A DNA stretch of 64,000 bases from Dehalococcoidia bacterium. Its GTDB lineage: Bacteria; Chloroflexota; Dehalococcoidia; Lucifugimonadales; QGNO01. Shown here piece after piece: positions 1,944-29,787 of the stretch. The position numbers and the translations under genes are program-made. Numbering within the stretch: the first letter of the stretch is position 1; each line of letters begins with the position of its first letter. The stretch covers positions 1,561,859 through 1,625,858 of the forward strand of contig CBDFLI010000002.1 in the NCBI GenBank assembly GCA_965249115.1, read 5' to 3'. The notes under the pieces were generated by a model. It searched no databases. It was not told the DNA's origin and was given only the letters and a program-made list of their open reading frames with translations.

Positions 1944-3029
1944 TCACCGACCTACAACTACCCTCCGTTCCACGTCTGCCCTGTATACCGGTATCTCGGT
2001 CAGTGCCTGCTGTACTGCATACTTCATGATTGTCAGCATAGCAACATAGGCTTCCCTGGGGATCATGTCGACAGGAGCCTGTAGGGATGGGTTGGCCTGG
2101 CCTCCCTCCATGCCACCGTTCCGTAGAATTTCCCTTATCATGTACTCCTCGAGTTCGGGGCTCTGCAGCAGTTCGGGCTTGTCGAGCAGGGCGGAAATAC
2201 AGGCAGTGATCCCGTAGGCGCCAAGATTAGAACACTCAGAAGCCAGCGTCACTTCGGCGTCCACCGCGGTAGCTATTCCTTGTCCGCACGGGCAATGGCA
2301 CTTGGTGGCGGCGGGCACTACCCTCCTTACCTCATCAATTATGGTTCCCATCCCGGCTTCATTGCCTAGATCCCCGATGCCTATCGTGAGTATCCCCCTC
2401 TCCTTCGCCTCGGTGAGGACATAATCTATCTTAGCTGTAGAGGACGACATATCGCTGCCGAATCCCGTGTGGTACACGCCTTTCGCATTCCGGCCGGACC
2501 TCTCTATGGCAATCACGGCTGACGGCGCCAAGTCATCCAGGATCCGCTTCGCCTCCCCCTTCGACTTCTCGTGGTCGGTCAGCGGGAATGCCTGTACGGC
2601 GGTCGCTTGAGGTATAGTGCGAATATCCCCTGGGGTGTAGACACGCAACTCGGCGCTTCTGCACGTTGCACTAATCAGGTCGACTTGGTAGTCGTCTGTC
2701 AGGACCAACGTGTTGGCTTTCATCCCGAAGTTGACCGCTCTTGCAAGTGAGGCTGCCCCTAGTGGCCCATCGGTCTCTCCAATCGGTATCAAAGGAGGAA
2801 CAGCGAAGCCCGTTAGGATAATTACCAGATCGTCGGGTTTCACGGCCTGCACCAGTTTGTCTGCGGCCAAAAGCGTCAAAGGCCCGCCGGTTGTTTTCCT
2901 TGCAGTTTCATAAAGCTGGGGGATCGTTCCCCAGGCTTCAAAACTCCGTGGCCTGAGCTCAAGAAGAGTCAGCCGGTCAATGGTCTCCCCTAGTCCCGTA
3001 AGCTTGGCCGCATTGTTAGACAGGGTCAT
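1944..3029 (-). CDS. DUF4392 / D-glutamate cyclase-like protein
   Basis: 361-aa ORF. The GETDGPLGAASLARA motif and overall layout match my recollection of the DUF4392 family. Family assignment is from memory only. Confidence 0.55.
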   Translation of the reverse strand: MTLSNNAAKLTGLGETIDRLTLLELRPRSFEAWGTIPQLYETARKTTGGPLTLLAADKLVQAVKPDDLVIILTGFAVPPLIPIGETDGPLGAASLARAVNFGMKANTLVLTDDYQVDLISATCRSAELRVYTPGDIRTIPQATAVQAFPLTDHEKSKGEAKRILDDLAPSAVIAIERSGRNAKGVYHTGFGSDMSSSTAKIDYVLTEAKERGILTIGIGDLGNEAGMGTIIDEVRRVVPAATKCHCPCGQGIATAVDAEVTLASECSNLGAYGITACISALLDKPELLQSPELEEYMIREILRNGGMEGGQANPSLQAPVDMIPREAYVAMLTIMKYAVQQALTEIPVYRADVERRVVVGR

Positions 3030-3099: not shown

Positions 3100-4053
3100 T
3101 TACCGGGGTGTAGCTAAACGCTCGTATTTGGAGAGGCTCCTGAGCTCCCTGGGTGGGTCCATGGTTGAGCCTCTAATTGTAAACGAGACTTCAGCGATAT
3201 ATACGTCACCTTTGGAGTCGACAGCGATGCCATGCGGAGCTATGAACTGCCCAGGGCCTTCCCCTTCCTCTGGGCTGCCAAATCTGCAGACCAACCGCCC
3301 ATTCAGATCGTAAATGCTGACCCTGTGACCGAGACCAGGTGCATCATCCACACCTGCCATCCCGCCGAGTTCACCGATGTAAATGTGGTCTTGCCATAGC
3401 ACCATGGCGTCAGGGCGGTGGATGTTGTTCCACATTTCTAGAAATTTTCCACCAGGATCGAAGATCTGAATCCTGTGGGCTTCACGATCTACTACATAGA
3501 CCCGATCATTCGCGTCTATAGCGATGTTATGCGGTCGGATGAATTGCCCGGCATCAATCCCAGAACTACCCCATGAGAATTTGTAGTCACCGCTTCCCGT
3601 GTACACGTGGATACGGGCATTTCCGTACCCATCTGATATATATATGTCGCCATTACTGGGCATGATAGCAGCCGAAGTAGGGCGGTTAAAAGGCTGACCA
3701 CTCCATTTGGGAGCCGGGTGATTCCGTTGTCCAATCTCCATTAGTTTTTCCCCTTGGGGCGTAAACTTCTGGATTGTGTGGATCCCGTCATCAGCTACGA
3801 GCAATGAGTCATCGTGGGCAATATAAAGTCCGTGGGTTCGGTTGCTGAAGAGCCCCTCTCCGAACGACCTAGTGAAGCTGCCGGCGCTGTCAAAAACCAT
3901 GATCGGGTGCTCGCCACGGGTCAGGACGAATACGTTGTCCCGCGAGTCCACCGCCACGCCCGGACACTCCTGGAACGACATCCCGTCTGGGAGGGTGGGC
4001 CAACCGTCCACATACTTGTACAAAAATTCGTCGGTGCCGTACGTGTCAGACAT
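3100..4053 (-). CDS. NHL-repeat beta-propeller protein (peptidyl-hydroxyglycine amidating lyase-like)
   Basis: Repeated units of the form GQFxxPHGIAVDxxxxVYVxDxxxHRIQxF occur several times across 317 aa. Confidence 0.6.
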   Translation of the reverse strand: MSDTYGTDEFLYKYVDGWPTLPDGMSFQECPGVAVDSRDNVFVLTRGEHPIMVFDSAGSFTRSFGEGLFSNRTHGLYIAHDDSLLVADDGIHTIQKFTPQGEKLMEIGQRNHPAPKWSGQPFNRPTSAAIMPSNGDIYISDGYGNARIHVYTGSGDYKFSWGSSGIDAGQFIRPHNIAIDANDRVYVVDREAHRIQIFDPGGKFLEMWNNIHRPDAMVLWQDHIYIGELGGMAGVDDAPGLGHRVSIYDLNGRLVCRFGSPEEGEGPGQFIAPHGIAVDSKGDVYIAEVSFTIRGSTMDPPRELRSLSKYERLATPR

Positions 4054-4239: not shown

Positions 4240-5268
4240 ATGAATAACCGGCGAAAGACAGGCTACAAGCACAGTCGTATAATGGTCGCTGATTGTTTTG
4301 CTATGGAAAAGAAACTCGAAACGTTTGAAGAATTCAGGAAGTCCCTCAACTACGGGTCCAGGACGGACCTGCTATTCAAGGTGTTAGGTGGGAACAATCT
4401 AACGGACGACGAAGTGGCCGAGTTCCTGAGAGGCCTCCTAGAGAGGCTCGGAGAGAGTTTCGATTCAAAAGATTATGAGTGGCTGTTGGAATATTGCTAC
4501 GAGTGGCAGGCATATGGATACGCACCCAAGGAAGGCTCCACTCCAAACTTCAAATACGATACAGGGCCTTGGGCCGATATAAAAAAGCCGTTGTCAGCTA
4601 GCAAAGTAGCTCTAATTTCTACCGGCGGCCTCTATCTTGAAGGAGATGATCCTCTGGGTCCAAATGGTCCATCACAGGAGGAAGCAATACCCAAGATTCA
4701 GGATTTTTTGCGAGATGCCCCTCAGCTCTCTACGATCCCGCGAGATTTTGACCCCAAAAAGATAAGAGTACGTCACCCAGGGTATGACATAAGGGGTACA
4801 AGGAACGACTATAACGTGGTATTTCCGATTGATCGCCTGACCGAATTATCAGAAGAGGGATTAATTGGAGACGTAGCAGAAAACAACTATTCGTTCGTCG
4901 GAGCCACGTCTCAAAAGAGATTGTTGGCCGATTTCGCTCCACAATGGGCTGAGCAAATTCTTGCTGAACAGGTTGATGCGGTACTACTGGTAGGTGCCTG
5001 ACCGGTTTGCCACGTGTCCGTCGGACACACAGCTAGAGTCCTAGAAGAGGCCGGAATCCCGACTGTTTGTATATATATTCATGCCTTTCGGCACCACGCT
5101 TTCAATCTAAAATTGCCCCGTGCCTTGATTACGCCACATATTCTGGGAAGAACTATCGGGCATCCGCACGATCGGGAAACACAGCGATTGGTGGTGAAAT
5201 CAGCCCTAGATCTGCTAGAAACTGCGACTGAACGCAATACAGTAATCGAGTTTGTATCAACGCGATAA
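4240..5268 (+). CDS. GrdB/PrdB-family (glycine/sarcosine/betaine/D-proline reductase B-like) selenoprotein, UGA read as Sec
   Basis: ORFs 4240-5001 and 5014-5268 are in the same frame and separated only by TGA 4999-5001. The joined sequence reads DAVLLVGA-U-PVCHVSVGHTARVLEEAGIPTV, the U/C-P-x-C-H motif of this family. The upstream NVVFPIDRLTELSEEGLIG is also family-typical. The true start may be the ATG at 4303. Confidence 0.7.
4999..5001 (+). other. In-frame UGA, predicted selenocysteine codon
   Basis: The TGA sits at the position occupied by Sec or Cys in the U/CxxC motif of GrdB-like proteins. The reading frame continues for 89 more codons. Confidence 0.65.
5014..5028 (+). other. SECIS-like hairpin 12 nt downstream of the UGA
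   Basis: GTGTCC-GTC-GGACAC forms a perfect 6-bp stem with a G/U-containing apex. Its spacing from the UGA is compatible with bacterial SECIS elements. Confidence 0.4.
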
Positions 5269-5387: not shown

Positions 5388-6302
5388 ATGCAATTTGGAC
5401 TGAACCTACTCAACTTTGGCCCTGGGGTTAGTCCCTCGGCCCTCCTGCGATGGGCCCTTATTGCCGAGTCGCTTGGCTACCATTTTGCCATGATCTCTGA
5501 CCACGTGGCGGTTACTACCGAAGTGGGCGCAAGGTACCCCGAGCCCTTCTACGACGCCTATGCTACCTTATCCTGGCTCGCGGGTCAGACAAAACACATC
5601 AAACTGGGCACCACAGTAATTGTCGTCCCTTACCGTCATCCGGTGCTCATGGCCCGACTTGGTGCCAACCTTGACAATCTGAGTGGCGGGCGCTTCATTT
5701 TCGGCGTCGGGGTGGGTAGCGCTCGGACCGAATATGAAGCACTCGGCATCCCGTTCCACCGGCGTGGCGCTATCGCCAACGAATATTTGTCCGCCATAAA
5801 AGAGTTGTGGACCAGCAAGACGGCATCCTTCAGCGGAAGCTACGTTAGTTTTAAAGACGTCTCCGGAATCGATACCCTGCAAAAGCCTCACCCGCCCATC
5901 TGGGTCGGCGGCAGCAGTGACCCTGCTCTTAAACGAGCTGTCCGCTATGGTGAAGCCTGGCACCCCAACGGAGTCCGTCTAGACTGGCTACGTAACAGTG
6001 GACTGCCGAGTATACGTAAATTCGCTGAAGAATTCCAACTTCCAGTCCCTGCGTTGGCGCCCCGAATTCGTCTGACCGTTACCGCTACAACGCGGCCCGA
6101 GGACACGCGCCTAGTCGGCGAAGGGACCATTGGTCAGGTGCGCCGAGACCTTGAAGCATTGAGTTCCCTGGGCGCAAGCCACATCCTCTTCGACTGGTAT
6201 ACTGGCGATCTTGAAGCGACCCGGCGCCACGAGTCCGAGTGGGGTATGCTGGCCCTCCTCGCTGACCAAGTTCTCGACATGGAAAAACAAACCCTCCGGT
6301 AA
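5388..6302 (+). CDS. LLM-class (luciferase-like) flavin/F420-dependent oxidoreductase
   Basis: The N-terminus MQFGLNLLNFG, followed by AESLGYHFAMISDH and FIFGVGVG, gives the typical luciferase-like monooxygenase family pattern. Confidence 0.8.
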   Translation: MQFGLNLLNFGPGVSPSALLRWALIAESLGYHFAMISDHVAVTTEVGARYPEPFYDAYATLSWLAGQTKHIKLGTTVIVVPYRHPVLMARLGANLDNLSGGRFIFGVGVGSARTEYEALGIPFHRRGAIANEYLSAIKELWTSKTASFSGSYVSFKDVSGIDTLQKPHPPIWVGGSSDPALKRAVRYGEAWHPNGVRLDWLRNSGLPSIRKFAEEFQLPVPALAPRIRLTVTATTRPEDTRLVGEGTIGQVRRDLEALSSLGASHILFDWYTGDLEATRRHESEWGMLALLADQVLDMEKQTLR

Positions 6303-6628: not shown

Positions 6629-7564
6629 TCAGGACAGCGGTGAGGCTAAAATAAGAGAGTCTACCGCTGGGGTGTCTCGTAAACCTTCATCCGATTGTAA
6701 GGCTTGTGGATGTTCCAGTAAACACCTTTGTGGGCTCACTGCATGGAACACCTGACCCGGTGACCGATAGCCCAGGGCTTGATGGGGCCGCTCTTGGTTG
6801 TAGAAGGCCAGATAAGCCCCAATCCCTTTTCTGGCCTCAGTCCCATTTTGGTATGCCTTCAGGTACACCTCCTCGTACTTGATGCTGCGCCACAGCCGTT
6901 CCACGAAGACGTTGTCCATGCACCGGCCCCTGCCGTCCATGCTCACTTGAACGCCTTGCGCCAGCAGCATGCTGGTGAAGGCCTCGCTGGTGAACTGGCT
7001 GCCCTGGTCGGTGTTGAAGATCTGTGGCCGACCCTTGCTCAAGGCCTCTTCCAGAGCCGCAACACAGAAGTCTACCTCCAGGGTGTTGGACAGCCGCCAG
7101 GCCAGCACGTAGCGGCTGTGCCAGTCCATGATGGCCATCAAGTAGAGGAAACCCCGAGCCATGGGTATGTAGGTGATGTCGGTGGCCCACACCTGGTTGA
7201 CCCGGTTGATCTCCAGCCCCCTGAGCAAGTACGGATAGACCTTATGCCCTGGGTTTGGCTTGCTGGTGTTGGGACGCCGGTAGATGGCCTCCAGGCCTAT
7301 CAGCTGCATCAGCCGGCGGACCCGCTTGCGGTTGACCTGGTGTCCGTGATTTCTGAGCCAGGCAGTCATCCTTCTGGAGCCGTAGAAAGGTGTCTTCAGG
7401 TACTGTTGGTCTATGAGGGCCATCAACTCCATGTCCTCGGCGCCGGCCTCGGTTGGCAGGTAGTACAACGAGGAGCGGCTGATACCCAGCAAGGCGCACT
7501 GGCGCACCAGAGACAGCTTCGGTTCTTCTCGGTCAATCATGGCCCGGCGTTGGGACCGGCTCAC
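6629..7564 (-). CDS. IS3 transposase OrfB (DDE/rve integrase core), -1 frame relative to OrfA
   Basis: The sequences [21 protein letters not shown] and [15 protein letters not shown] give the DDE triad context of the rve domain. Confidence 0.9.
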
Positions 7565-7845
7565 AACCCGAAGCTCCGTGACAAAAAATCCCGTTCCACC
7601 TTGAGCTGCCCAATCTGTTGGTAGAGCTGGGCAGTGAGGACCTCTTGGTCCTTCTCCTGGCGTCCAGCACCATTTTCAAAGAGGTGCGGCGCCCCCTGAG
7701 TCAAGGCCTTCTTCCAGGCATGGATCTGGCTCGGGTGGACTTCAAACCGGCTGGCCAGCTCTGCAATGGTGTGCTCCCCCTGGAGCGCGGCCAAAGCCAC
7801 TTTGGCCTTGAAGACTGGGCTGTGCTTCTTACGTGTTTGCTTCAT
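7561..7845 (-). CDS. IS3 transposase OrfA (HTH)
   Basis: The 94-aa sequence [39 protein letters not shown] is typical of IS3 OrfA. Confidence 0.9.
7582..7588 (-). other. Putative -1 programmed frameshift heptamer T TTT TTG (IS copy 1)
   Basis: The minus strand reads GAT TTT TTG TCA. A -1 slip gives [22 protein letters not shown], which runs directly into OrfB. Confidence 0.6.
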
Positions 7846-8661
7846 GTCCTGCTCCTTCTTTCCGTCCTATTTTAGGAGCGGGACTCTCTCTTAGCCACCT
7901 GTCCGAATTTTGGGGTCCACCTCAATTGTTCTTTTATAACCAACTCAAGGTTCAGAGTGAGATGATGCGCGTCACCGAAACCAAGGTCGCATCCTCGGGT
8001 AGGACCGTTACGATCCAGGCTCCGAAGGCACCGGCCGTAGGATTCTTCGATGGCGACCTGAGTGGAATACTCTTTTGCCCCGGGCTCATAGTAGATATAC
8101 CGCGTGGAAAGGACATAGTTGTAGCCGTCATAGACACTCAGGCCAAGAGTTCCCGTCTCAGGGTGGAGAAGCATGAACTCAATGTGGAGGGTGCCACGCT
8201 TAGCCTCGAAGCTGAAGGAGAGCTACGCTACGAACTCTCGGTTCACGACCCTTCTGACGCCGGGGAGTTTAGGGTAGAGATCGAGAGGCGCAGAGAAAAC
8301 CTAAAGGCTCTGAGGGTCTTAGCGTCATCAGATGAGGGGTTGCATGAAAGTGGGGCGTGGACTCCAGCGAAACCTTCGAAAAGGAGGGTAATAGTAGGAC
8401 ACTCCAGTCCATTCTGGGTTGAAGAGGGGAGGTTTGAGGAGGCTTTGGAGAACTCTGAACCTGAGAAACGCAAATCCAAAGTAAAGCTTTTAGTAATAGG
8501 AGACCCTGCTCCAGACACGGACTACCGGATACGGCTGGTAGCAAACCGAGGCTGGATGAAGAAAGATCAAGTGGACGAAACGTCCATATATTTCAAATGA
8601 CCCATACCCACCGATTGGGATTAAGCTTCAGGATCGAACCTGACTATTTGGTCGGCACACC

Positions 8662-9519
8662 ATGGCATCAAAACCAACTCAGCCCCTGTCCAAAGAAGAC
8701 ATCGTCTCCATAGACGGCATGCGGGCCAAGTTCTTTCTCGTGGTAATGTTGTGCGAAATCCCGCAGTTCCTGGAACTCTGGGAACAGGCCAGGCGGCCCG
8801 TTACAGAGGTCATTGAGAGGCTAGGACCGGACCTCAAGGAGCGCCTGCTATCTGTAAGTCCAGAGAGCATAGCCGCCCAAATGGGAGCAATATCTGAATC
8901 CCATTTCTCGCATTCAGATGATAGCCCAGGCACCGAAGGGACAAAGGCAGCATTGCGTTCATTATTATTGGTGCTTGGAACTTTGGATGCAAATTCCGAA
9001 GGCAGAACTGCCGCTGATTACTTTGCTAGTCTGGAACGCATCGTTGAACCACTTGGCGTCCCTGACTTGGTCACAATACTAGTGTTTCTTGATTTCAGGC
9101 GATGGAAACTGGATAACCTTTTCAGCAATACCCATCCCACAGAAGGACCGTTGGTGGACGCCCTCCAGATAGAGGTATTGGGCGCCATGACCGACCTAAG
9201 CCCATTGGAACTGACGCAGGAAACGCCCGGGAAAATCATAAGTCGCTCTCTAAGAAAAATAGGGCCCCTGAGCTGGCACATGAAACGTTATGACCTTTGG
9301 GGCAGAGTAGACCTTTGGCTGGTCAACGTCGTATTCGGACAGACACACGAGGAGATCTCTAAAAGTTTGGAGTCTGACGAATCCCGCGTTATAAAAGGGA
9401 GACCCTACTCGTGGATAACTAGGCAGGTACCTGATACGAGCCGTCTTTTGGGTGTGCACAGACGAGGCAGACCAAGAAAACTCACCGTTCTCGATCACTG
9501 GAATGACATGATCAAGTAG
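8662..9519 (+). CDS. Hypothetical protein with C-terminal HTH-like segment and AT-hook-like RRGRPRK
   Basis: 285-aa ORF. The C-terminus GQTHEEISKSL...SWITRQVPDTSRLLGVHRRGRPRK resembles a sigma-region-4/LuxR-type HTH plus an AT-hook. A strong terminator follows. Confidence 0.5.
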   Translation: MASKPTQPLSKEDIVSIDGMRAKFFLVVMLCEIPQFLELWEQARRPVTEVIERLGPDLKERLLSVSPESIAAQMGAISESHFSHSDDSPGTEGTKAALRSLLLVLGTLDANSEGRTAADYFASLERIVEPLGVPDLVTILVFLDFRRWKLDNLFSNTHPTEGPLVDALQIEVLGAMTDLSPLELTQETPGKIISRSLRKIGPLSWHMKRYDLWGRVDLWLVNVVFGQTHEEISKSLESDESRVIKGRPYSWITRQVPDTSRLLGVHRRGRPRKLTVLDHWNDMIK

Positions 9520-9547
9520 TACATATTTTTTGCCTCAGTTCCCCTTT

Positions 9548-9580
9548 AGGCTTGGTACGTGTAGTTACCAAGCCTTTTTT
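9548..9580 (+). terminator. Rho-independent terminator
   Basis: AGGCTTGGTA-cgtgtagt-TACCAAGCCT forms a perfect 10-bp stem and is followed by TTTTT. Confidence 0.75.
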
Positions 9581-9595
9581 CATAGGTGGGAACCA

Positions 9596-9889
9596 ATGTA
9601 CGAAAAGAAAACGAGTACAAAGAAGAACCGCAGATTAGGTGAGACATTCGATAGTGACGGGCTTGAGCAGAAGCGTTACAAAGTGAGTATTCGAAACGCC
9701 ATAACTGGCGACATCTCCGAGCGGATCTCTCGACTCCACGCTTCAGCAATTGAGGAGGCGATCACCGTTCCGTCTTTGAGTGCTGGGTCAGGGCTGACGA
9801 GCAGTCGTCACCAGCGCTCGAGGGCGAGCCCCAGCGCTGACCTTAGTAGTGACCTCAACGCTCAGCGCTCACTGCCAGTGCTTGAGTAG
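9596..9889 (+). CDS. Hypothetical small basic protein
   Basis: The ATG at 9596 follows a GGTGGGA RBS-like sequence. The product is 97 aa with no recognisable motif. Confidence 0.4.
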   Translation: MYEKKTSTKKNRRLGETFDSDGLEQKRYKVSIRNAITGDISERISRLHASAIEEAITVPSLSAGSGLTSSRHQRSRASPSADLSSDLNAQRSLPVLE

Positions 9890-9923
9890 TCGAATCCACC
9901 CAGACATTAGGAAGGACAAAGAG

Positions 9924-10367
9924 ATGGACAATAAATGTAACCATTGCGACTTTGAAGCAAAGACCTCTCAAGGACTGGCTGGACACAGACGGCTGGCCCA
10001 TACCGAAGACGTTGAGCACTCGACCGACCCAACGGTCATTCCATCAGAGGCGAACCCGGTCCAAAACGCTGCGCTCGACGAGAACTTGAGTGTTGAAGAT
10101 CCTGCACTCGAACTCTCAAATCCAGAACGTGACTCCCCGAAGTCCAAGTTCTCGACTTCCATGTATTTGGATAGTGAATCGGATGGTCGGCGTTGGCATA
10201 TCGATCCGGCACCAATCTGTCACACCTGTGGTCAGCAAACCCAACACTGGGTGGAATGCGATACCTGCCAGAAACTCCTTCCCGTGAACCACACCGGGCG
10301 GTGCTGGGCAGACGGAGACAACATGGGAATGACCTGGGACGAATTGATTGAATCAACCTACAGGTGA
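9924..10367 (+). CDS. Zinc-finger protein (N-terminal C2H2-type finger, C-terminal CxxC...CxxC ribbon)
   Basis: The ATG at 9924 follows AGGAAGGA. CNHCDFEAKTSQGLAGHRRLAH fits C-x2-C-x12-H-x4-H, and CHTCGQQTQHWVECDTC is a Cys4 ribbon. Confidence 0.55.
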   Translation: MDNKCNHCDFEAKTSQGLAGHRRLAHTEDVEHSTDPTVIPSEANPVQNAALDENLSVEDPALELSNPERDSPKSKFSTSMYLDSESDGRRWHIDPAPICHTCGQQTQHWVECDTCQKLLPVNHTGRCWADGDNMGMTWDELIESTYR

Positions 10368-10537
10368 CAAAAGTTGATCGAAATTTGAATGTCGGACATT
10401 CGGGCTCACGAGATCGTATCTTTTTGGAGCAACGGAGCAACGAATCGATCATATGTCGCTATTGAATATATAATGCCAACGTAGAAATAGGAGCCCTTGA
10501 TAATCGATTGCGTTTCTAAAGTTCGCGGAGGGTTGTC

Positions 10538-12120
10538 ATGAACGTAGTAGAAATTCTCGAATTCTATTTCCCATGGAGGTTTGCTCCAGGATCCGATTTC
10601 TTTGAATCTGCAGAGGGGAAACTGATTGTTGACAGGCTCCAAAGGATTCCTGATGAGCCTCTAACACTCACACACCTGAATCAGCTTTTGCATTTGAATA
10701 GTGAGGCTGGTGTTACAGAGGGGGCGTTTCGCTACTACTTCCTCACCGATGCTCAAAATCACCCTTATTCGTTGCAATCACTCTCAGTTCCTAAGCCTAG
10801 CCCCATGCCAGACCGGGAGATAACCACAATTGGACAATTAGAATGGGGAATTGAGCGTTTCTATACCGACGCACTCCTTTATTACGGGAACCTTCGGTCT
10901 GCGTATCGGCATTTGCGTGATAAATCGTTTGATGAGCTCACCAATATGTACAAAAACAAAAGAATCGATTCGAGAGGTATGAGGCTCCGAGGACAAATCA
11001 TGCCACTTATAGACGTCCAGGTGGACGATCGATATTTGATTTCAGAGCTAGCCTGCAAGGCGTACGGGGAAGTATCTGGAGCAGCGACAACTCCAATCAT
11101 TGAACAGTTGGTTGCTGCATACAATCGGAGGGGAGGAACCACTACCTCCATAAAAACGCTTGTGGAAAGTGCAAACGCAGAAAACGAAGACGATTTCCAG
11201 GCGCAGTTAGCTTTCCCGTTGGCCACGGAAGAAATTGAAAACGAGCAAGTAGAGTCAGAAGAGGAGCTACGTGCAAAGCTTGGAGGTGTCCTCGAGCGAT
11301 TCCGGTCTGCGAGACAACGGGCCTTAGAGAACACCAAAATCTATTTGTCAATTTGTAACGAACTCGACGTCTATGTGGCGACTAGCATGCGCAACCGAAC
11401 CGATTTTAGAACAGCCGCAGAGTCAATACGCAGAATATTTTCCGACCCGCGCCTTGACGCTTATCAGTTGCGCTATTTCGACCCCACTTTGAGTGCTGCA
11501 AACACACATGAGGACGAAGGGCTCATCGAATGTCTGATGGTAAAGAGAGCTAAAGTGATCGTCTACTTTGCTCAGGAACGCGACAGTTGGGGAAAAGATA
11601 GTGAGGCTTCAATGGCCTTAAGTCAGGGCAAGCCAGTAATAATATACTGCCCTCCGACCCCGGAAGGTCGGCAGAGGATGAAAATGTTCAGAGATGAGCC
11701 TGTCTCAGAAGTCTCCTGCCAGGATTTTGGGTGGAGGCAGTCCTACGGTTAGCGATCACGACCACCCTGATAGAGTATGAAATACTGCAAAATAAGCCGT
11801 CATGCCCGCGAAAGCGGGAATCCAGAAAGATAGCATACTGGAGCTCTCAGCTTTATGAGACAGGCTCAGATGTCAATCCTTTGAGCCGACTGGTTGATCT
11901 TCAGACTGGTGTTGCGGTCGGAGCCTACATCACGGACGAACTTGGGACCGTTACCGAAATCCTCAGCCGTATATTTTCCAATTCCATGGAACATCAAATT
12001 GAGGGAGATCAGGGTTACTATAGACTGAGGGAGCATCTGACGAACAGTGCCGTTCGTCTTATCACTAACGACCGCACGATCACTGAGACGTTCTGGAATT
12101 ACTACCACGACGTAGTGTAA
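10538..12120 (+). pseudogene. Hypothetical protein with C-terminal NDT/SLOG-like Rossmannoid module, interrupted by a MITE
   Basis: ORFs 10538-11752 and 11731-12120 fuse in frame (...MKMFRD|VNPLSRLVDLQ...) when 11696-11867 plus one AGAT copy is removed. This gives a reconstructed ORF of about 468 aa. Confidence 0.6.
11696..11867. mobile_element. MITE-like 172-bp insertion
   Basis: Perfect 12-bp terminal inverted repeats, GAGCCTGTCTCA (11696-11707) and TGAGACAGGCTC (11856-11867). The flanking direct repeat is AGAT (11692-11695 and 11868-11871). There is an internal CCCGCGAAAGCGGG hairpin and no coding capacity. Confidence 0.7.
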
Positions 12121-12206
12121 GCAAAATCTCCGTAATTTCTTACTAGATTGGGCACACAAACCTGGCATTTACGTCTCGTACGCCGATGTGCGAAGGAGTT
12201 ATCGAG

Positions 12207-13223
12207 ATGGATGAGGTGGGAATAGAAGGTCTTCATGACTTGATCGTTTGCTATTTGGATCAAATGGATCAGGTCCAACCGGGGCCCACAACGATATTCA
12301 AGACTTATTCGTCCCAAATAGATCTTGAGACGAAGATCTGGCATTACTACCACAAGATTGAAGCGACCAGTCACCATACCGCTCGAGTGGTCAAATTATC
12401 TAACGAAGTCAGGAATCGATTGAAGGAGATGGTTGAAACGATGCCGATTGGATTGGATAAGGGTACAACCGAGATCAGCGTTACGTTGGAAAATCGGGAA
12501 ATCCTATTCGAAATCGACGCCTTTTTTGCAGCTGCTCGCTCATCTCTGGATTTCCTGGCATCCATCATCAGTCGGTATATCAAGGGCCTCGACATTGATA
12601 CATTCAAACGAGCAGACAAGATCCTTGGCAAAAGTAGCCATGCTGTCGCGAAAACGGTCAAAGAAAGTTGGGCTAATTGGGCAGAAGATCTGGTCACCTA
12701 TCGAGATCATTTGCTGCACAGGGGAGTCTTGCCCACTACCGTCGGAACTCATGTGATGGTGACGACGCCTGGCTCTACGGATTCGAGTATCGACAATATA
12801 TTAAGCTCAGACCGATTTGGCCCAACCAGCCCCATCGTATTCCCCCTGCCGCTGAAACCCAATCCGAAAACGAGGATAACCCGTCTCGATGCTTCCGAGT
12901 CGCAAGAACAAGTTCTTCCAACTGGCGTCGTGGAATCAACCGTAACCGTCCGGTCATCTACTGGTGGCAAACTTCGTGGAATAACAGTGACAGCCAGTCA
13001 GGGGCGAACCGTCGGGCCCATTACTGCTAAAATATCCTCAGAAATATCGTTGAGTGGTGAAGCCGCTTCAAAAACTGTCAAAGCGTACCATTTGGAGACC
13101 GGTTACGTGGAAGGTGAAGCATTATGCAGACAATATTTATATAGATTGTTGACGCTTGGGTACGACGTGATCAACCAACTGATGCAACTCAAGTTTTCCC
13201 ACATAGATATCCCGAATAAATGA
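12207..13223 (+). CDS. Hypothetical protein with HEPN-like R-x4-H motif
   Basis: The ATG at 12207 lies 8 nt after GAAGGAG (the ORF track starts at 12186). An alpha-helical N-terminal half (FEIDAFFAAARSSLDFLASIISRYI) is followed by LVTYRDHLLHRG, with R-DHLL-H at 12702-12719. Confidence 0.5.
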   Translation: MDEVGIEGLHDLIVCYLDQMDQVQPGPTTIFKTYSSQIDLETKIWHYYHKIEATSHHTARVVKLSNEVRNRLKEMVETMPIGLDKGTTEISVTLENREILFEIDAFFAAARSSLDFLASIISRYIKGLDIDTFKRADKILGKSSHAVAKTVKESWANWAEDLVTYRDHLLHRGVLPTTVGTHVMVTTPGSTDSSIDNILSSDRFGPTSPIVFPLPLKPNPKTRITRLDASESQEQVLPTGVVESTVTVRSSTGGKLRGITVTASQGRTVGPITAKISSEISLSGEAASKTVKAYHLETGYVEGEALCRQYLYRLLTLGYDVINQLMQLKFSHIDIPNK

Positions 13224-13292
13224 ATTCGTCAGCCGGACATCAAGGCGGTTGCGCCTAAAAATCGATGACAGGTACGTCTCGATGGAGTGTTA

Positions 13293-13369
13293 TGGTCGGG
13301 GTGAGTGGATTCGAACCACCGGCCTCTACGTCCCGAACGTAGCGCTCTGCCAAGCTGAGCTACACCCCG
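13293..13369 (-). tRNA. tRNA-Pro (anticodon CGG), CCA encoded
   Basis: The minus strand reads CGGGGTGTAGCTCAGCTTGGCAGAGCGCTACGTTCGGGACGTAGAGGCCGGTGGTTCGAATCCACTCACCCCGACCA. This gives a 7-bp acceptor stem, the anticodon loop TT-CGG-GA and a GGTTCGAATCC T-arm. Confidence 0.9.
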
Positions 13370-17583: not shown

Positions 17584-17889
17584 ATGAGCAGACGACCCCG
17601 CCGTAACCACTCGGCAGAGTTCAAGGCGAAGGTGGCTCTTGCCGCAGTGCGCGGCGACCGGACACTTTCGGAGCTGGCAAGCCAGTTCGATGTGCACCCG
17701 AACCAGATCACGCAATGGAAGACCCAGTTGCTGGATCGGGCGGCGCAGTTATTTGGGGCCGGGCCAGGGCAGGCTGAAAAGCCGGTAGATATGAAGGTCC
17801 TTCACGCCAAGATCGGTGAGCTTGCGTTGGAGAACGATTTTTTAGAGGCCGCGCTCACGAAGGCGGGATTGCCGGGCGCAAGGCGATGA
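17584..17889 (+). CDS. IS3 transposase OrfA (HTH)
   Basis: [38 protein letters not shown] is homologous to OrfA of copy 1. Confidence 0.9.
   Translation: MSRRPRRNHSAEFKAKVALAAVRGDRTLSELASQFDVHPNQITQWKTQLLDRAAQLFGAGPGQAEKPVDMKVLHAKIGELALENDFLEAALTKAGLPGARR
17838..17844 (+). other. Putative -1 programmed frameshift heptamer T TTT TTA (IS copy 2)
   Basis: The sequence reads GAT TTT TTA GAG. A -1 slip gives DFF-RGRAHEGGIAGRKAMIDRD, which runs into OrfB. Confidence 0.6.
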
Positions 17890-18713
17890 TCGACCGCGAT
17901 CACAAGCTGCCTCTCGCCCGCCAGGCAAAGGCAGTGGGCATCAGCCGCAGGAGCATCTACTACCGGCCACGGCCGGTGGGCGAAGCCGGTCTCGGACTGA
18001 TGCGCCGCATCAATGAGCTGCACCTTGAGTATCCGTTTGCAGGCAGTAGGATGATGCGAGGCCTGCTCCGCCAGGAGGGACTCTCCTGCGGGCGTAGACA
18101 CATCGCCACACTGATGCGGCGGATGGGCATCGATGCGCTGTACCGCAAGCCCAACACCAGCCGGCGACGGCCCGGCCATACGGTGTATCCGTACCTGCTG
18201 CGCGGGCTTGAGGTGAGCAGGCCCAACCAGGTGTGGGCAATGGATATCACGTACATTCCGATGGCCAGGGGGTTCGTGTACCTAGCCGCAGTGATGGACT
18301 GGCATAGCCGCAAGGTGCTGGCCTGGCGGGTATCGGTCACAATGGACACAGACTTCTGCGTGGAGGCGCTCGAAGAATCCCTGGGACGCCACGGCGCGCC
18401 GGAGATATTCAACACAGATCAGGGAAGCCAGTTCACAAGTGATGCCTTCACCGGCCTGCTGAAAGCCAATGGGATCCAGATCAGCATGGACGGGAAGGGA
18501 AGCTGGAAGGATAATGTGTTCGTCGAACGGCTGTGGAAGAGCGTCAAGTACGAGGAGGTGTACCTGAGAGCCTACGAATCGGTCCCGGAAGCCAGAACTG
18601 GACTCGGGCGGTACTTCGAGTTTTACAATGCCGGACGGCCCCATTCGAGCCTTGGGGGAATGACGCCGGACCAGTTCTTTGACAGAGCGCCTGCCGAGTC
18701 CGCGGCGGCCTAA
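17886..18713 (+). CDS. IS3 transposase OrfB (DDE/rve)
   Basis: The motifs [21 protein letters not shown] and [15 protein letters not shown] are present. It lies in the -1 frame relative to OrfA. Confidence 0.9.
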   Translation: MIDRDHKLPLARQAKAVGISRRSIYYRPRPVGEAGLGLMRRINELHLEYPFAGSRMMRGLLRQEGLSCGRRHIATLMRRMGIDALYRKPNTSRRRPGHTVYPYLLRGLEVSRPNQVWAMDITYIPMARGFVYLAAVMDWHSRKVLAWRVSVTMDTDFCVEALEESLGRHGAPEIFNTDQGSQFTSDAFTGLLKANGIQISMDGKGSWKDNVFVERLWKSVKYEEVYLRAYESVPEARTGLGRYFEFYNAGRPHSSLGGMTPDQFFDRAPAESAAA

Positions 18714-24749: not shown

Positions 24750-26198
24750 CTATTGTAATGGTGGGCGCTTGCCTGCCCAGGGGCGCGCCTCCTCAAAGGC
24801 GGCGGAGGCCCTGAAGACTAACGATTCATCACCTCGGCGACCAACAATCTGCATTCCTATGGGCAACCTCTCGGAAGAGAAGCCGCAAGGCACGCTGGCC
24901 GCCGGGTTGCCAGACATGTTGAACGGGTAGTTGAATCCGTACCAGCCCGACATGGGATGGCTCTCCTGCCCGTCGATAACAGTCGGGCGTTGCGATCCGG
25001 AGAACGGTATGACGGACACAGTTGGAGTCAATAGAATGTCGTATTTAGCGAAGTAGTCGTCGACCTGAGCGCGGAACCGTTGAAGCTCCGCGAGTGCCAC
25101 GGCGTACTCCGGGCCCGTCACTTTACCACCTTCCTCAATGCTGTCCCGAACATAAGGCATCATCATATCACCATGCTCACTCAGGAGGTGTCCGTATTGG
25201 AGATATGAAGCGGGGCCACGGAGCCTGCGCAGCGTATCGTGCAGCGCCGCCGCATCAATGTTCAGCGGTGCTGGCTCCAGAGTCGCTCTCAACTCTTCAA
25301 ACACGCCAACGGCCCGCTCAAAGGTACGGCGGACCTCAGGCTCCACTAGAACGGAACCTAGGTCGCTGCTCCAACCAATGCGCAATCCGCTGACCCCCTG
25401 TTCCAGTGCCGAGACCCAATCAGGTGGTGGCTCCTGGATCGTCCCTGGTTGGGCATCGGTGTGTGGGCCCGACATAGCATGAAGATAGATGGCGGCATCA
25501 CGCACAGTCCGGCTCAGGGGGCCGTCGTTGGAGAAGTTGACGGGGTTCCAGCTCATGACACCGGCGTTTCTCCTCGGCACCCGTCCCTGCGTGCCCATTA
25601 TGCCGAAGATACCGCAAAAGGAAGCGGGAATGCGAATGGACCCTGCGCCATCCGTTCCATGGGCGACGGGACTTATTCCAGCCGCCACGGAAGCGGCCGC
25701 ACCGCCACTGGACGCGCCGCTGCCCATTTCAATGTTCCACGGGTTGCGGCAATAATCCCCCAGCTTGTTCTCGGTCACACCACCTCCCTCTCCAAATTCC
25801 GGAGTGTTTGTCTTGCCAAGAATTATCGCTCCTGCGGCCCGCAGGCGCTCGACGACCAGATCATCGCGGTCAGGTATCCAGTCCTTGTATATCAGGGAAC
25901 CCTTGGTGGTCCGGACGCCCCTGGTGGCAACCAAGTCTTTTATGGACGTGGGTACACCGTGCAGAACGCCCAGAGACTCTCCTCGTTGGACCTTCTTTTC
26001 AGCGTCATGGGCTGCTTCAATTGCCTGGTCAGCTGTGACCGTAAGAAAGGCGTTGAGCTTGGGATTGAGCGCCTCAATACGCCGGAGACTTGCCTCGGTC
26101 AACTCAATGGGAGACAGCGCCTTGCGAGATATCAACTCTCGAAGTTCATAGGCGGGCAAATAAGCCAGTTCGTCCTCAAGCATGTCGCTCCTCGTCAT
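24750..26198 (-). CDS. Amidase-signature amidase
   Basis: [16 protein letters not shown]...[16 protein letters not shown] matches the amidase signature. Confidence 0.85.
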
Positions 26199-26430
26199 CG
26201 GAATATCAGTCCCAGGTAGTCACCCGGCCAGACTCTTCCTCGGTTTGGATTGGGAGCCTTGCCTTTCGAAGCCCGATTACTTGGCTCAATTTACCACTTG
26301 TCGGGGAGAAAGTGATAATCAATACCGGGCGATGGTTAGACCCTCAAGCACGCAGCAGAAAAATACGCTGATTGGCTGGACATCGAACTCGAACTTGCCG
26401 GAAGGGCACAATTGTCTGCCAACCATTAGG

Positions 26431-26673
26431 CTATCCCGGGCCGAACAGCGCCCACAGGAGCATCCCTATCCCGAAGAGCACCACGATGAAGCCTAAAATC
26501 ACGGGAGATTCGCCTTTGACTGTTTTGTCCTCAAACGGAGGTCCCGGAGGCCACGAAACCACGATCGAGAACAACGCAATGAACACGACGTGGCCTATTA
26601 AAGTCAGACGCCGCGCCCTGAGGAATACTCTGAATTGACTGTTCGTAAACATGCTAATTTGAAAATACTTCAC
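26431..26673 (-). CDS. Small hypothetical membrane protein
   Basis: 80-aa ORF with two hydrophobic segments and no homology signal. It may not be expressed. Confidence 0.3.
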   Translation of the reverse strand: MKYFQISMFTNSQFRVFLRARRLTLIGHVVFIALFSIVVSWPPGPPFEDKTVKGESPVILGFIVVLFGIGMLLWALFGPG

Positions 26674-26973
26674 CTCTTAGATCTATGAATCCCTCCGCTA
26701 GATGTAGAGTGACCTGGATTTATTCCGAAAGGCGACTGAACATGAGCGAGCACACGCATCTACTTTCTGAAAGGCCACATGTGGAAAGTAGAACCTCACT
26801 GTGCGGATCGAGCCTGCTAACCCAAGCGGCTCAGGACAGTGCTACCCGCCCAGTTACGTTCTATGGGGGGACACCCCCTACCCCCAAGAGAAAGACCCTT
26901 GAGCTGGCTCAGGGAGAACGACTGTAGTCTCTCAGTAGCCCGCTTGAATCCCTCAGAACAGCAGCGCCTCCAG

Positions 26974-28518
26974 CTACACAGTCTCGTTGTAGTAATAGTA
27001 CGGTTGCGTTACCTGGTGCTGCCACTGGTGGTAGTACCCATGCACGTAGGGCTGTAACTCAGCACCCAATCGCGCCCGTTCGATCTCATGCGGTTGCAAT
27101 GGACGTGACATCCTCTCCCTGATCTCCGCCCAGACCTCCTCTTTGTTGACCCTGGTCAGCTTGCGGTCCCGCATCAGGACTTCGCCGTCCACTATCACTG
27201 TGTCCACGTCAACGCCGCGTCCCCGGTACACCAGGGCGTCAACGGCGTCGGTATCGGGATGCAGGTACGGCTCAGTGATGTTGCTCAGGTCCACCAGGAC
27301 GACGTCGGCGCGCTTCCCCTTCTCCAGGGTGCCGATCTTATCGGCCAAGATGGTCGCCCTGGCACCGCCTTCGGTAGCCATACGGAAGACCTGGTGAGAC
27401 GTTGGACTGGGCGCGTCTATGCCCGGCAGGCGGTGGAGCTTGTGGATGAGACGCATCTCCTGGAGCATGTCCTTGTCGTCGTTGATGCTGACCTCGTCAA
27501 TGCCGATGGCCACGTTGACCCCTTTGGCCAGAAGGTTATTCAGGGGCGCGATGCCGCTCTTGAGGCGCAGGTTGGAGGCGGCGTTGTGACAGATGATGGT
27601 CCCGGTCTCCGCCAGGATGTCCACATCCGACTCCGTGAGCCAGGTGCCGTGGCCGCAGGAAAGCTCCGGCCCGGTGAACCCGATGTCGTGAAGATGGGCC
27701 AGGGGCGTCTTGCCCCAGGTCCTCAGGCCGTACATCTTCTGATAGACGGTCTCCTGTAGGTGGATGTGAAGCCCGGTCTTGAAACGTTTGGCGTACTCCC
27801 TGGCGGCGGCGAAGAAGTCGTCGGAGCACCACTGAACGTTGGCGGGGCTGACGATATGGGTGACACGGGGATCGTTGGACACGCGGTCGCGGATACCGGT
27901 AACGGTGGCGAAGTAGGTCTCGTCCGATACGGCGCCCGCCTCCAGGTATTCTCCGTATCTAGTAGCCAGACCATTGGGCAGCGTGCTGAGAAAGGTGCCG
28001 TCGTCCTCATAGACGACACGGTTCTGGTTGCGGAAGCTGTAGGAGAAGGCGACGCGCATGCCGGCGTCCTGGTAACCACGGACCATCTCCAGGCCGGCCT
28101 CTACGGGGTCAGAGCCTTTGGTAACGTACCACAGGGAGCGGTTGTGCATCACGTTGGTGACGCCCGATTCGATCATCTTGATGGCCGCGTAGATGGAGTC
28201 CAGGTAGGGATCCATATCGCGGGCACCCATACGGGCGGTTATCCACGGCTCCAAGGGGAGGTCCGGCACACCCATTTGAAAGGGTGTAAAGCCGGAGTGC
28301 TCATGGGCGTTGATCATCCCGGGCATCACCAGGTACTTGTTGGAGCCGATCTCTTCATCAGGCGTGTGGCGGGCCTTCAGGTCGTCGTACCTGCCCACCT
28401 CTATGATCTCGCCGTCGCGTTGGAACACGGCACCGTCGAAGATGATCTCGCTGGCGTCGTTGTCCAGGACCCTGATGACGACGTATTTGCCCCGGATGAG
28501 GGAGGTTGGCATTTTCAT
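26974..28518 (-). CDS. Amidohydrolase superfamily enzyme (deaminase/chlorohydrolase-like)
   Basis: MPGMINAHEHS carries the HxH metal motif. Other motifs include HLQET, and at 514 aa the size fits the family. Confidence 0.8.
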   Translation of the reverse strand: MKMPTSLIRGKYVVIRVLDNDASEIIFDGAVFQRDGEIIEVGRYDDLKARHTPDEEIGSNKYLVMPGMINAHEHSGFTPFQMGVPDLPLEPWITARMGARDMDPYLDSIYAAIKMIESGVTNVMHNRSLWYVTKGSDPVEAGLEMVRGYQDAGMRVAFSYSFRNQNRVVYEDDGTFLSTLPNGLATRYGEYLEAGAVSDETYFATVTGIRDRVSNDPRVTHIVSPANVQWCSDDFFAAAREYAKRFKTGLHIHLQETVYQKMYGLRTWGKTPLAHLHDIGFTGPELSCGHGTWLTESDVDILAETGTIICHNAASNLRLKSGIAPLNNLLAKGVNVAIGIDEVSINDDKDMLQEMRLIHKLHRLPGIDAPSPTSHQVFRMATEGGARATILADKIGTLEKGKRADVVLVDLSNITEPYLHPDTDAVDALVYRGRGVDVDTVIVDGEVLMRDRKLTRVNKEEVWAEIRERMSRPLQPHEIERARLGAELQPYVHGYYHQWQHQVTQPYYYYNETV

Positions 28519-28614
28519 ACTCCTTGGTATGCGTTGGGGATTACTTGGGTTCCGACATTGATCGGTTTTTGTATTATACGTTCGCCCCCTTGGTTAGACA
28601 TGTCGAGATGCCGA

Positions 28615-28663: not shown

Positions 28664-28675
28664 GAACTGTGGAAG

Positions 28676-29725: not shown

Positions 29726-29787
29726 CTTTGTTCTCCCTCAGAGTGGCTCCCTCAGAGCGTGCGAAGTGATACCGGAAACAAGCCTAA

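Follow-up and report, generated by a model that had tools for sequence, protein, structure and literature searches.

Nucleotides 4303 to 5268 of the window, the 64-kb stretch of DNA analysed here, form a single gene, and it is highly likely that this gene encodes a selenoprotein of about 320 residues from an orphan PrdB-like branch of the glycine/sarcosine/betaine/D-proline reductase protein B superfamily, with UGA 4999-5001 read as selenocysteine (Sec) and the hairpin downstream of it acting as a bacterial SECIS. The initial annotation had held that two open reading frames, 4240-5001 and 5014-5268, share one frame and are split by TGA 4999-5001 alone; sequence, ORF list and translation agree that this TGA is the sole stop between them. 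Read-through across it yields ...VDAVLLVGA*PVCHVSVGHTARVLEEAGIPTVCIY..., and the peptide spanning the UGA position is then ...VDAVLLVGA-U-PVCHVSVGHTAR, in which a U-P-V-C-H motif begins at the TGA. Because ORF callers halt at the UGA, the gene is reported as a 239-253-aa fragment and an 84-aa fragment. The features considered first are as follows.

4303-5268, + strand: full CDS of the proposed selenoprotein, about 320 aa including Sec, with stop TAA at 5266-5268
4255-4283, + strand: promoter-like site, AAGACA-17 nt-TATAAT, 10 of 12 consensus matches in a consensus scan, weak
4999-5001, + strand: in-frame UGA, probably read as Sec, first residue of U-P-V-C; full-length homologs have Cys here
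5008-5010, + strand: TGC, Cys three residues past the Sec position, presumed resolving cysteine; TGC or TGT in 83 of 83 loci

The CDS probably starts at ATG 4303 (MEKKLETFEEF...), as judged from the sequence, with ATG 4240 and ATG 4282 as alternative in-frame starts. The homolog N-termini MTQHKPESFEEF and MSEENKETLEAF agree with a start at 4303, and the product predicted by the gene caller (P0001) runs from 4282 to the UGA. The promoter-like site falls within the 5' part that mechanical calling adds to the ORF, at a position that suits the ATG 4303 start; as the consensus scan returned three sites against 1.6 expected, it is not significant alone.

Conservation of the in-frame UGA

The codon preceding P-x-C-H is TGA in 83 of 83 loci, that is, in the window and 82 others from at least eight phyla, which include Chloroflexota, Actinomycetota, Acidobacteriota, SAR324, Desulfobacterota, Spirochaetota, Gemmatimonadota and Armatimonadota. 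In every locus the frame stays open for 73-116 codons past the TGA, and identity to the window protein is 57% downstream of it compared with 49% upstream. Coding conservation is therefore found on both sides of the UGA, and the downstream part is translated. A homolog search returned 276 homologs at E<=1e-3, and 119 of the best 120 of these stop at ...LLV(G/A/P)(A/V), precisely the UGA position; with a Cys-form query, 115 of the best 120 matches are cut there as well. Full-length Cys-form homologs are rare. Alignment with such homologs was a check set beforehand for the proposal that the UGA occupies a Sec/Cys position, and it placed Cys exactly at the UGA in P0125, P0126, P0144, P0156 and P0163 (…LVPV-C-PVCHVS…), while the Cys-form genes L084-L088 carry TGC at the UGA column.

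These findings bear on the simplest alternative, in which the TGA is a true stop, so that a truncated gene or pseudogene at 4240-5001 is followed by a remnant or small ORF at 5014-5268, or the two form a natural two-gene pair. Gene callers report the split form in essentially every genome, small ORFs of 64-90 aa are called directly past the stop in L002 and L003, and TGA serves as a regular stop in the window. A pseudogene, however, would not be expected to keep this TGA and its reading frame in all 83 loci across those phyla, together with a downstream peptide conserved better than the upstream part. Likewise, a two-gene pair would need a start codon and a ribosome-binding site, yet conservation is unbroken from the TGA through P-V-C-H. 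Furthermore, the Cys-form homologs are single polypeptides, and the RNA hairpin constraint described below is gone in three of five Cys forms once TGA has become TGC. Given all of this, a true stop is most unlikely, and the reading of a single selenoprotein gene is preferred. When the window was scanned for further in-frame-TGA genes, 105 mechanical candidates were obtained, none of them with convincing features except the one at 4999.

The hairpin downstream of the UGA

The RNA element that accompanies the UGA is described by two features.

5014-5028, + strand: SECIS-like hairpin core, GUGUCC-GUC-GGACAC, with covariation and synonymous constraint that is relaxed in Cys forms
5009-5033, + strand: extended family hairpin footprint (alignment A2, columns 17-41), a 10-bp helix with one mismatch in most relatives

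The perfect hairpin GTGTCC-GTC-GGACAC that had been noted 12 nt past the UGA is indeed present. Counted from the UGA, the hairpin begins after 12 nt (5002-5013) and its 3-nt apical loop after 18 nt; the G and U of this loop are invariant across the family. Taken alone, the hairpin is mildly unusual, as a perfect 6-bp hairpin occurs 8-20 nt downstream of 29 of the 2127 TGA trinucleotides in the window (1.4%). Comparison with relatives raises it far above chance. Across the hairpin alignment, 92.3% of cells are paired, a value reached by none of 500 shuffles, and compensatory pairs are present at columns 21-37 (CG 47, UA 16) and 22-36 (GC 70, AU 8; Fisher p=1.4e-8). RNAalifold returns the identical core.

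Codon usage indicates that the hairpin is selected as RNA. The Val+5 codon is GTG in 73 of 73 cases versus 40% elsewhere in the same genes, and the Gly+8 codon is GGR in 83 of 83 versus 41% elsewhere. The Cys-form genes provide a control: GTC, GTA or GGC appears at the constrained sites in three of five of them but in 0 of 83 Sec forms (p=9e-5). Thus, the synonymous constraint on the hairpin is relaxed in the Cys-form genes.

The window copy is the family's weakest form of the hairpin (6 bp). Its core has a folding energy of -6.8 kcal/mol, and the fold z-score of the 60-nt stretch is only -1.5. Of the extended hairpin, only the 6-bp core and two outer G-C/C-G pairs are able to form in the window, with an energy of -8.3 kcal/mol versus -13.6 kcal/mol in L019. 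A long-range outer stem, CCGGUUU/AGGCCGG, appears in the minimum-free-energy fold of the window; it was rejected as part of the element because the family consensus fold gives it no support. Rfam has no match at the locus at either gathering or permissive thresholds.

The SECIS of E. coli fdhF is a short hairpin within the CDS, the helix base of which lies about 10-12 nt past the UGA and the small apical loop of which contains G and U. The family hairpin resembles the minimal, SelB-binding upper stem-loop of this element in its location within the CDS, its UGA-to-helix distance and its small G-U loop; it is a stem-loop directly 3' of the UGA with a G in a small apical loop, as a SECIS should be. 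It differs from fdhF in sequence, it has no bulged U, and its loop is a 3-nt G-U-N triloop (G-G-U-C-G in TCG variants).

Two further explanations can be weighed against the hairpin. In the first, the TGA is an assembly or sequencing error for TGC or TGT, and the gene encodes a PrdB-like enzyme with a plain Cys at this position. The family does have Cys forms, and an amidase gene close by shows at least one apparent frameshift, so that the assembly or the genome is not free of lesions. Nevertheless, TGA stands at this codon in 82 independent assemblies obtained by varied methods, and the window copy retains both the Sec-specific GTG...GGA and the perfect hairpin, which are lost in three of the five Cys forms; an error is consequently most improbable.

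In the second, the UGA is recoded to a residue other than Sec, either by reassignment to Gly or Trp or by SECIS-independent, near-cognate read-through with Cys or Trp. The Cys present in homologs suggests that the structural context would tolerate insertion of Cys. However, TGA is an ordinary stop, closing 21 of the 52 large ORFs in the window and 39 of 82 genes of the family itself, which argues against a genome-wide reassignment. In addition, the hairpin is conserved, lies at SECIS distance and has an invariant G-U in its small apical loop, a combination that is the signature of SelB-dependent decoding (described in PMC1088965), and the host phyla are known users of Sec (PMC1794560, PMC13326102). 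The host is a Chloroflexota bacterium of the class Dehalococcoidia, two MAGs of which are among the top ten selenoprotein-rich bacteria (PMC13326102). Non-Sec recoding is therefore very improbable.

Taken together, the TGA found at every locus, the conserved downstream frame, the covariation of the hairpin and the Sec-specific synonymous constraint uphold the suggestion in the initial annotation that a selenoprotein had been missed by ORF calling. Insertion of Sec would then take place in the host organism itself.

Family assignment, gene neighbourhood and known relatives

The translated protein is divided into two regions.

4303-4569, + strand: N-terminal helical domain, family-specific, with a near-invariant F-x-x-S-x-x-Y-G-S-R-x-D-L-x-F-K; absent from the PrdB model
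4570-5247, + strand: PrdB/GrdB-like catalytic domain spanning the UGA (TIGR04483, residues 111-336; PF07355, residues 168-251)

Profile scans, for which Sec was entered as Cys, make the protein a member of Pfam GRDB (PF07355; 48.5 bits versus a gathering threshold of 22, E=1e-12), and PF07355 is precomputed for essentially all homologs. Thus, assignment to the GrdB family, as first proposed, stands at the Pfam level but fails for the specific GrdB and PrdB equivalogs. The best specific model is NCBIfam TIGR04483 (PrdB), the match to which starts at residue 111 of the 342-aa translation (E=5.6e-31) and scores 107.8 bits versus a cut-off of 300; GrdB (TIGR01917) scores 61.2 versus 602.2 bits, and the subfamily model TIGR01918 ('various_sel_PB') is narrowly missed, at 60.6 versus 65.45 bits. 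The protein falls outside the UGSC family by NCBIfam NF041046 (29.1 versus 125) and by its motif, U-P-V-C; its score for Pfam PF24696 (UGSC), 25.6 versus 25 bits, is borderline and lies beneath the stronger GRDB match. Because the PrdB score is under the cut-off, the protein is accurately labelled as 'GrdB/PrdB superfamily, orphan subfamily'. The family comprises at least 1200 sequence clusters and 196 GTDB species. Its N-terminal domain has no match in Pfam or NCBIfam, and the AF2 model of homolog P0126 shows helices there (14-78).

The initial annotation had also reported that grdA, grdE, prdA, selA, selB and selD are absent from the window, and this holds by every approach used. Pfam scans covered the selenoprotein ORF and 40 more, every window ORF of 150 aa or longer except one, and reveal none of the partner or sel genes; motif checks of the window are negative, ARAGORN and Rfam find only a tRNA-Pro in the 64 kb, and tblastn with approximate E. 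coli SelA, SelB and SelD queries, a weak negative, gives no match in the window or the loci. Similarly, no prd or grd partner cluster is present within about 5 kb of the gene in the 82 loci. A linked partner gene is excluded, and a partner may be encoded elsewhere. Clustering of neighbours across the 82 loci gave only weak, inconsistent associations: an ArsM-like SAM methyltransferase in 10 loci, a luciferase-like oxidoreductase in 7 (the window included), radical SAM proteins in 7, a glutaredoxin-thioredoxin-reductase fusion in 7 and a class-I disulfide reductase in 6. The largest neighbour clusters were discarded as antisense artefacts of the selenoprotein gene itself.

It might be argued that the gene encodes a genuine D-proline reductase PrdB or glycine reductase GrdB whose partner genes lie elsewhere in the genome. 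PrdB is, after all, the best specific model, the JGI and NCBI names of relatives include 'D-proline reductase (dithiol) PrdB' or 'subunit gamma', and the UxxC motif, here U-P-V-C at 4999-5010 with Sec or Cys in first position, is held in common. On the other hand, the scores fall far below both equivalog cut-offs, the PrdB model lacks the additional N-terminal domain, about 90 aa long, and PrdA, GrdE, PrdC and GrdA are missing from the window, as is any partner cluster from the loci. Furthermore, the gene is hosted by groups such as Dehalococcoidia/SAR202, Acidimicrobiia and SAR324, which are not known as Stickland fermenters. A true PrdB or GrdB is accordingly quite improbable, and an orphan PrdB-like subfamily is the preferred assignment.

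The protein can be set beside several known systems. Like PrdB of Clostridium sticklandii and Clostridioides difficile, it belongs to the Pfam GRDB superfamily, carries Sec in UxxC and has a SECIS-like hairpin within the CDS directly after the Sec-encoding UGA. Unlike PrdB, it reaches one third of the equivalog cut-off, possesses an additional conserved helical domain and is encoded by a singleton gene, with no prdA, prdC, prdD, prdE or prdF near it in the 82 loci or the window, in non-clostridial phyla, many of whose members are aerobic or environmental. With GrdB, GrdF and GrdH (TIGR01917, NF040794, NF040795; PF07355) it shares the C-terminal 160 residues, which include the Sec site, and relatives go under the NCBI name 'glycine/sarcosine/betaine reductase selenoprotein B family protein'; only this C-terminal third aligns, however, with 55-61 bits versus cut-offs of 602-800. 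The window motif is UxxC-H, whereas that of GrdB is UxxCxxC (PMC13188914), and the GrdA, GrdE and GrdC of the glycine reductase system do not accompany the window gene. The UGSC family (PF24696, NF041046) is likewise an abundant environmental selenoprotein and matches weakly in the strand-U/C-x-x-C-helix module, but UGSC proteins are about 147 aa long with a U-G-S-C motif, and the overlap covers only about 65-105 residues.

The closest precedents come from metagenomes. In reports from 2005-2008, 'proline reductase PrdB' homologs are among the most abundant marine selenoproteins (PMC1088965, PMC2398784), and PrdB homologs with UxxC (pfam07355) are catalogued as abundant selenoproteins (PMC1088965, PMC2398784, PMC1976440). 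Their Sec:Cys ratios are given there as 42:1 in the Sargasso Sea, 235:110 in GOS and 5:0 in the Olavius delta-1 symbiont (Zhang, Fomenko & Gladyshev 2005; Zhang & Gladyshev 2007, 2008; PMC1088965, PMC2398784, PMC1976440). One of the 82 loci, L026, is from an Olavius delta-1 genome. This catalogued marine and symbiont group very probably includes the window gene, which has pfam07355, the UxxC motif and a strong bias of Sec over Cys in common with it. In the parts of those papers available to us, all pfam07355 UxxC proteins are grouped as 'PrdB', and the N-terminal domain, the absence of PrdA and the SECIS are not described. A search for literature on PrdB-like proteins by that name, or on SAR202 selenoproteins, returned nothing.

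Proposed mechanism and significance

A model can be offered for how such a protein might be made and might act. The hairpin core, with its small G-U-N apical loop, would recruit SelB with Sec-tRNA(Sec) to the ribosome. By analogy with PrdB and GrdB, the selenolate would act as the nucleophile towards an electrophilic carbon or sulfur in the substrate, after which Cys+3 would resolve the adduct as a selenenylsulfide, a role presumed for Cys 5008-5010 from the UxxC motif of PrdB/GrdB listed in PMC1088965 and PMC2398784. A dithiol system, such as thioredoxin/thioredoxin reductase, could then re-reduce the selenenylsulfide. In the confident AF2 model of the Cys-form homolog P0126 (pLDDT 86.6), the motif that corresponds to U-P-V-C is predicted to lie between a beta-strand and a helix N-terminus, a typical position of a redox-active pair. 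A PDB sequence search with the read-through protein (no match at E<=1) and Foldseek with the P0126 model (no match at E<=1e-3) gave no functional lead from structure.

The substrate is probably not D-proline, as a PrdA-type pyruvoyl partner is beside the gene in none of the loci. A bolder idea is that the PrdB-like family is a self-contained selenoenzyme, in need of neither PrdA nor GrdE, in which the N-terminal helical domain would bind the substrate or even provide the carbonyl cofactor, and that it carries out a reductive cleavage or redox reaction on an environmental substrate in aerobic or facultative bacteria (SAR202/Dehalococcoidia, Acidimicrobiia, SAR324). The Gly-Ser pair of the near-invariant Y-G-S-R resembles the self-cleavage sites of pyruvoyl enzymes. 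This idea is speculative and, on present evidence, rather unlikely.

The PrdB-like family has been known as a selenoprotein since 2005 (PMC1088965, PMC2398784), and the window copy is a routine addition to it, which by itself does not make the biochemical role of the abundant environmental 'PrdB' selenoproteins without PrdA more tractable. For annotation, the two fragments are best joined as a single selenoprotein gene, and the host would thereby be counted as a user of selenocysteine. Since public protein sets cut the family at the UGA, as both homolog searches found, most entries lack the catalytic C-terminal third, and the compact SECIS, with its covariation support, could be used to re-annotate the family.

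The reading frame and its family

The initial annotation had joined two ORFs, 4240-5001 and 5014-5268, across one TGA as a probable selenoprotein gene. The sequence, the ORF table, and the translation of 4240-5268 bear this out: both ORFs lie in one frame, TGA 4999-5001 is the sole stop between them, and read-through gives the peptide ...VDAVLLVGA*PVCHVSVGHTARVLEEAGIPTVCIY.... The hairpin GTGTCC-GTC-GGACAC is likewise present in the sequence at 5014-5028, 12 nt past the TGA. Homolog N-termini and, as weak evidence, a promoter-like site (AAGACA-17-TATAAT, 4255-4283) favour ATG 4303 as the gene start, giving a product of 320 residues including selenocysteine (Sec).

When scanned against profiles with Cys in place of Sec, the read-through protein passes Pfam GRDB PF07355 (48.5 bits versus a cut-off of 22), and at the Pfam level the proposed GrdB-family membership holds. 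The best NCBIfam match is the PrdB model TIGR04483 (residues 111-336, E=5.6e-31), at 107.8 bits, short of the 300-bit equivalog cut-off. The GrdB, GrdF, and GrdH models, which align only with the last ~160 residues, give 55-61 bits against cut-offs of 600-800; the subfamily model TIGR01918 is narrowly missed (60.6 versus 65.45 bits), and the UGSC selenoprotein family overlaps weakly. The first ~90 residues from ATG 4303 have no match in Pfam or NCBIfam, and this region of the family contains the near-invariant motif F-x-x-S-x-x-Y-G-S-R-x-D-L-x-F-K.

Comparative evidence for selenocysteine

Screening 5.8 billion proteins turned up 276 homologs, and 119 of the best 120 are ~233 aa long and end in ...LLV(G/A/P)(A/V), exactly at the UGA position. 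DNA was fetched for 3 of these homologs and, from among 196 GTDB species that encode a relative, for 80 loci of species representatives; since L003 and L011 are the same chromosome, these represent 82 distinct loci. In all 82, as in the window, TGA immediately precedes P-x-C-H/Y. Among the taxa represented are Dehalococcoidia, Anaerolineae, Acidimicrobiia, Acidobacteriota, SAR324, Desulfobacterota (including an Olavius delta-1 symbiont), Spirochaetota, Gemmatimonadota, and Armatimonadota. At every locus the frame stays open past the TGA for 73-116 codons (median 94), and mean identity to the window is 57% downstream of the TGA versus 49% upstream.

A sequencing error, a pseudogene, and a two-gene arrangement were rejected, as none of them explains why 82 independent assemblies share the TGA position and the conservation downstream of it. 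Code reassignment was also rejected because TGA is an ordinary terminator here, ending 21 of the 52 window ORFs of at least 150 aa and 39 of 82 genes of the family itself.

With the 88-residue C-terminal part of the window protein as query, a full-library HMMER search matched mostly short C-terminal fragments and a minority of full-length proteins. In full-length P0125, P0126, P0144, P0156, and P0163, a Cys aligns with the UGA (...LVPV-C-PVCHVS...), so the UGA/Cys check proposed in the initial annotation is passed. With the Cys form P0126 as query, 1209 proteins were found at E<=1e-10, and full-length Cys forms account for only 5 of the best 120 matches. Sec is thus shown to be the strongly preferred state.

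Two loci depart from the general pattern. At 1409-1411 of L089 (protein P0002), AGA (Arg) is found where all others have TGA or TGC, and the complete SECIS hairpin GTG TCC GTG GGA CAC is retained despite this; a T-to-A mutation of very recent date or a base-call error in the 2.4-kb contig would account for the AGA. In a close relative, L001 (598,947-bp contig, ENA sample ERZ26167216; region 8700-10171), the gene retains the TGA and hairpin. An IS whose DDE_Tnp_1 transposase lies at 8840-10171 on the minus strand breaks it after ...AFRHHAY; consequently, this copy is inactivated by insertion.

The SECIS-like hairpin

Taken alone, the window hairpin is only mildly unusual. Its energy at 5014-5028 is -6.8 kcal/mol, the 60 nt after the UGA have a fold z-score of only -1.5, and a perfect 6-bp hairpin starts 8-20 nt downstream of 1.4% of all window TGA trinucleotides. 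It is the shortest form in the family (5009-5033, -8.3 kcal/mol versus -13.6 for a typical relative).

The window and the 82 loci, 83 sequences in all, were aligned without gaps in codon register, and a 10-bp helix with one mismatch and a G-U-N triloop was scored on this alignment (columns 17-27 paired with 31-41). Paired cells make up 92.3% of this helix, pairing collapses when the partner columns are shifted, and RNAalifold independently finds the same hairpin core. Compensatory double changes occur at pairs 21-37 (C-G 47, U-A 16) and 22-36 (G-C 70, A-U 8), and 24 cells are doubly changed versus 7.0 +/- 2.1 in shuffled alignments, a value reached by 0 of 500 shuffles. At pair 22-36, Val-to-Met (GTG to ATG) is accompanied by the synonymous switch of a His codon from CAC to CAT in 8/8 cases spread across several phyla (Fisher p=1.4e-8). 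Furthermore, synonymous sites within the stem are frozen: Val codon +5 is GTG in 73/73 versus 40% elsewhere in the same genes, and Gly codon +8 is GGA or GGG in 83/83 versus 41% elsewhere in them. Five Cys-form genes were fetched as a control. Because three of them use GTC, GTA, or GGC at the +5/+8 sites, as none of the 83 Sec forms does (p=9e-5), the constraint on stem codons goes with UGA decoding rather than with the protein.

In the loop, G and U never vary across the alignment, and the loop lies 18 nt from the UGA. The minimal E. coli fdhF element has a spacing of ~11 nt, which the family hairpin fits. At 25 loci, mainly Acidimicrobiia, columns 25-33 combine the Ser codon TCG with the loop codon GTC, and a 5-nt G-G-U-C-G loop there replaces the C-G-closed G-U-G triloop; this may be due to codon bias of the lineage or may represent a second type of SECIS loop.

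Taken together, these results confirm the observation in the initial annotation and support its interpretation: the window gene is very probably a genuine Sec-encoding PrdB-like gene.

Genomic setting, chemistry, and family

Other features of the window (strand where assigned)
484-1892, plus: amidase, frameshifted (flanking)
1944-3029, minus: D-glutamate-cyclase-like protein (flanking)
3100-4053, minus: NHL-repeat protein (flanking)
5388-6302: luciferase-like oxidoreductase (flanking)
6629-7564, minus: IS3-family transposase (flanking)
13293-13369, minus: tRNA-Pro(CGG), the only tRNA of the window
17886-18713: second IS3-like transposase
24750-26198, 26974-28518, and 30949-32319: three further amidases/amidohydrolases
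28676-29725: phosphotriesterase-family protein
29788-30654: DUF1028
37635-38621: Amidohydro_2

The flanking amidase gene is split between ORFs 484-978 and 924-1892, which overlap and are in different frames; they cover positions 1-135 and 140-445 of Pfam Amidase. The frame is broken directly after the GGSSSGS signature, near 960-980, and the gene is either a frameshifted pseudogene or the product of a 1-nt assembly indel. From the IS3 transposase to tRNA-Pro (6629-13369), GC is 0.49-0.51 versus 0.55-0.60, and ORFs 7833-8600, 8662-9519, 10538-11752, and 12186-13223 lack a Pfam match; this segment may be an island integrated at the tRNA. The stretch 24750-38621 is rich in hydrolase genes, among which lie a class-III aminotransferase and two MFS transporters; it resembles an island for the catabolism of amides or lactams.

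In agreement with the initial annotation, Pfam scans of the other large window ORFs found no Sel, Grd, or Prd proteins. Neighbour clustering over the 82 loci also gave no conserved partner, and the selenoprotein gene is thus a singleton, whereas prdB and grdB are located in operons (PMC13188914). Among real neighbours, an ArsM-like methyltransferase is the most frequent (10 loci), followed by luciferase-like oxidoreductases, radical SAM proteins, and a glutaredoxin-thioredoxin-reductase fusion (7 loci each) and by a class-I disulfide reductase (6 loci). The ArsM-like SAM methyltransferase, a Methyltransf_31 protein with N-terminal Cys pairs, is directly upstream at 10/82 loci, and NAD(P)H disulfide reductases of the fusion or class-I type lie within ~3 kb at 13/82; both associations hint weakly at a link to redox or metalloid chemistry.

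A confident AlphaFold2 model of P0126 (pLDDT 86.6, pTM 0.79) has a helical bundle at the N-terminus and then an alpha/beta domain; no solved relative was found by sequence search or by Foldseek. The modelled C/U-P-V-C motif follows strand 228-232 and opens helix 236-251, the usual geometry for a redox-active pair. The sequence comparisons show the UGA recoding, which would depend on SelB. By analogy with PrdB/GrdB, the Sec selenolate would be the nucleophile; the adduct would be resolved by Cys+3 to a selenenylsulfide, for whose re-reduction a dithiol system would serve. D-proline is unlikely as substrate, since the protein fails the equivalog test and has an extra domain, PrdA is lacking, and the host range does not suit it.

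The passages retrieved from earlier work place 'Proline reductase PrdB' homologs (pfam07355, UxxC) among the most abundant selenoprotein families (PMC1088965, PMC2398784, PMC1976440), with Sec-to-Cys counts of 42 to 1 in the Sargasso Sea (PMC1088965), 235 to 110 in GOS (PMC2398784), and 5 to 0 in the Olavius delta-1 symbiont (PMC1976440). These passages contain no description of the N-terminal domain, of orphan status over 82 loci, or of a covariation-supported SECIS with a Cys-form control. Given these reports, and since relatives are already named 'selenoprotein B family protein' at NCBI, the window gene is a mis-called gene correctly caught and very probably belongs to an already known selenoprotein family. 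Finally, the window tryptophanyl-tRNA synthetase has named relatives in Chloroflexota, Dehalococcoidia, and SAR202, and BSepDB counts two Dehalococcoidia MAGs in its top ten of bacteria rich in selenoproteins (PMC13326102); consequently, Sec use is expected in this lineage.
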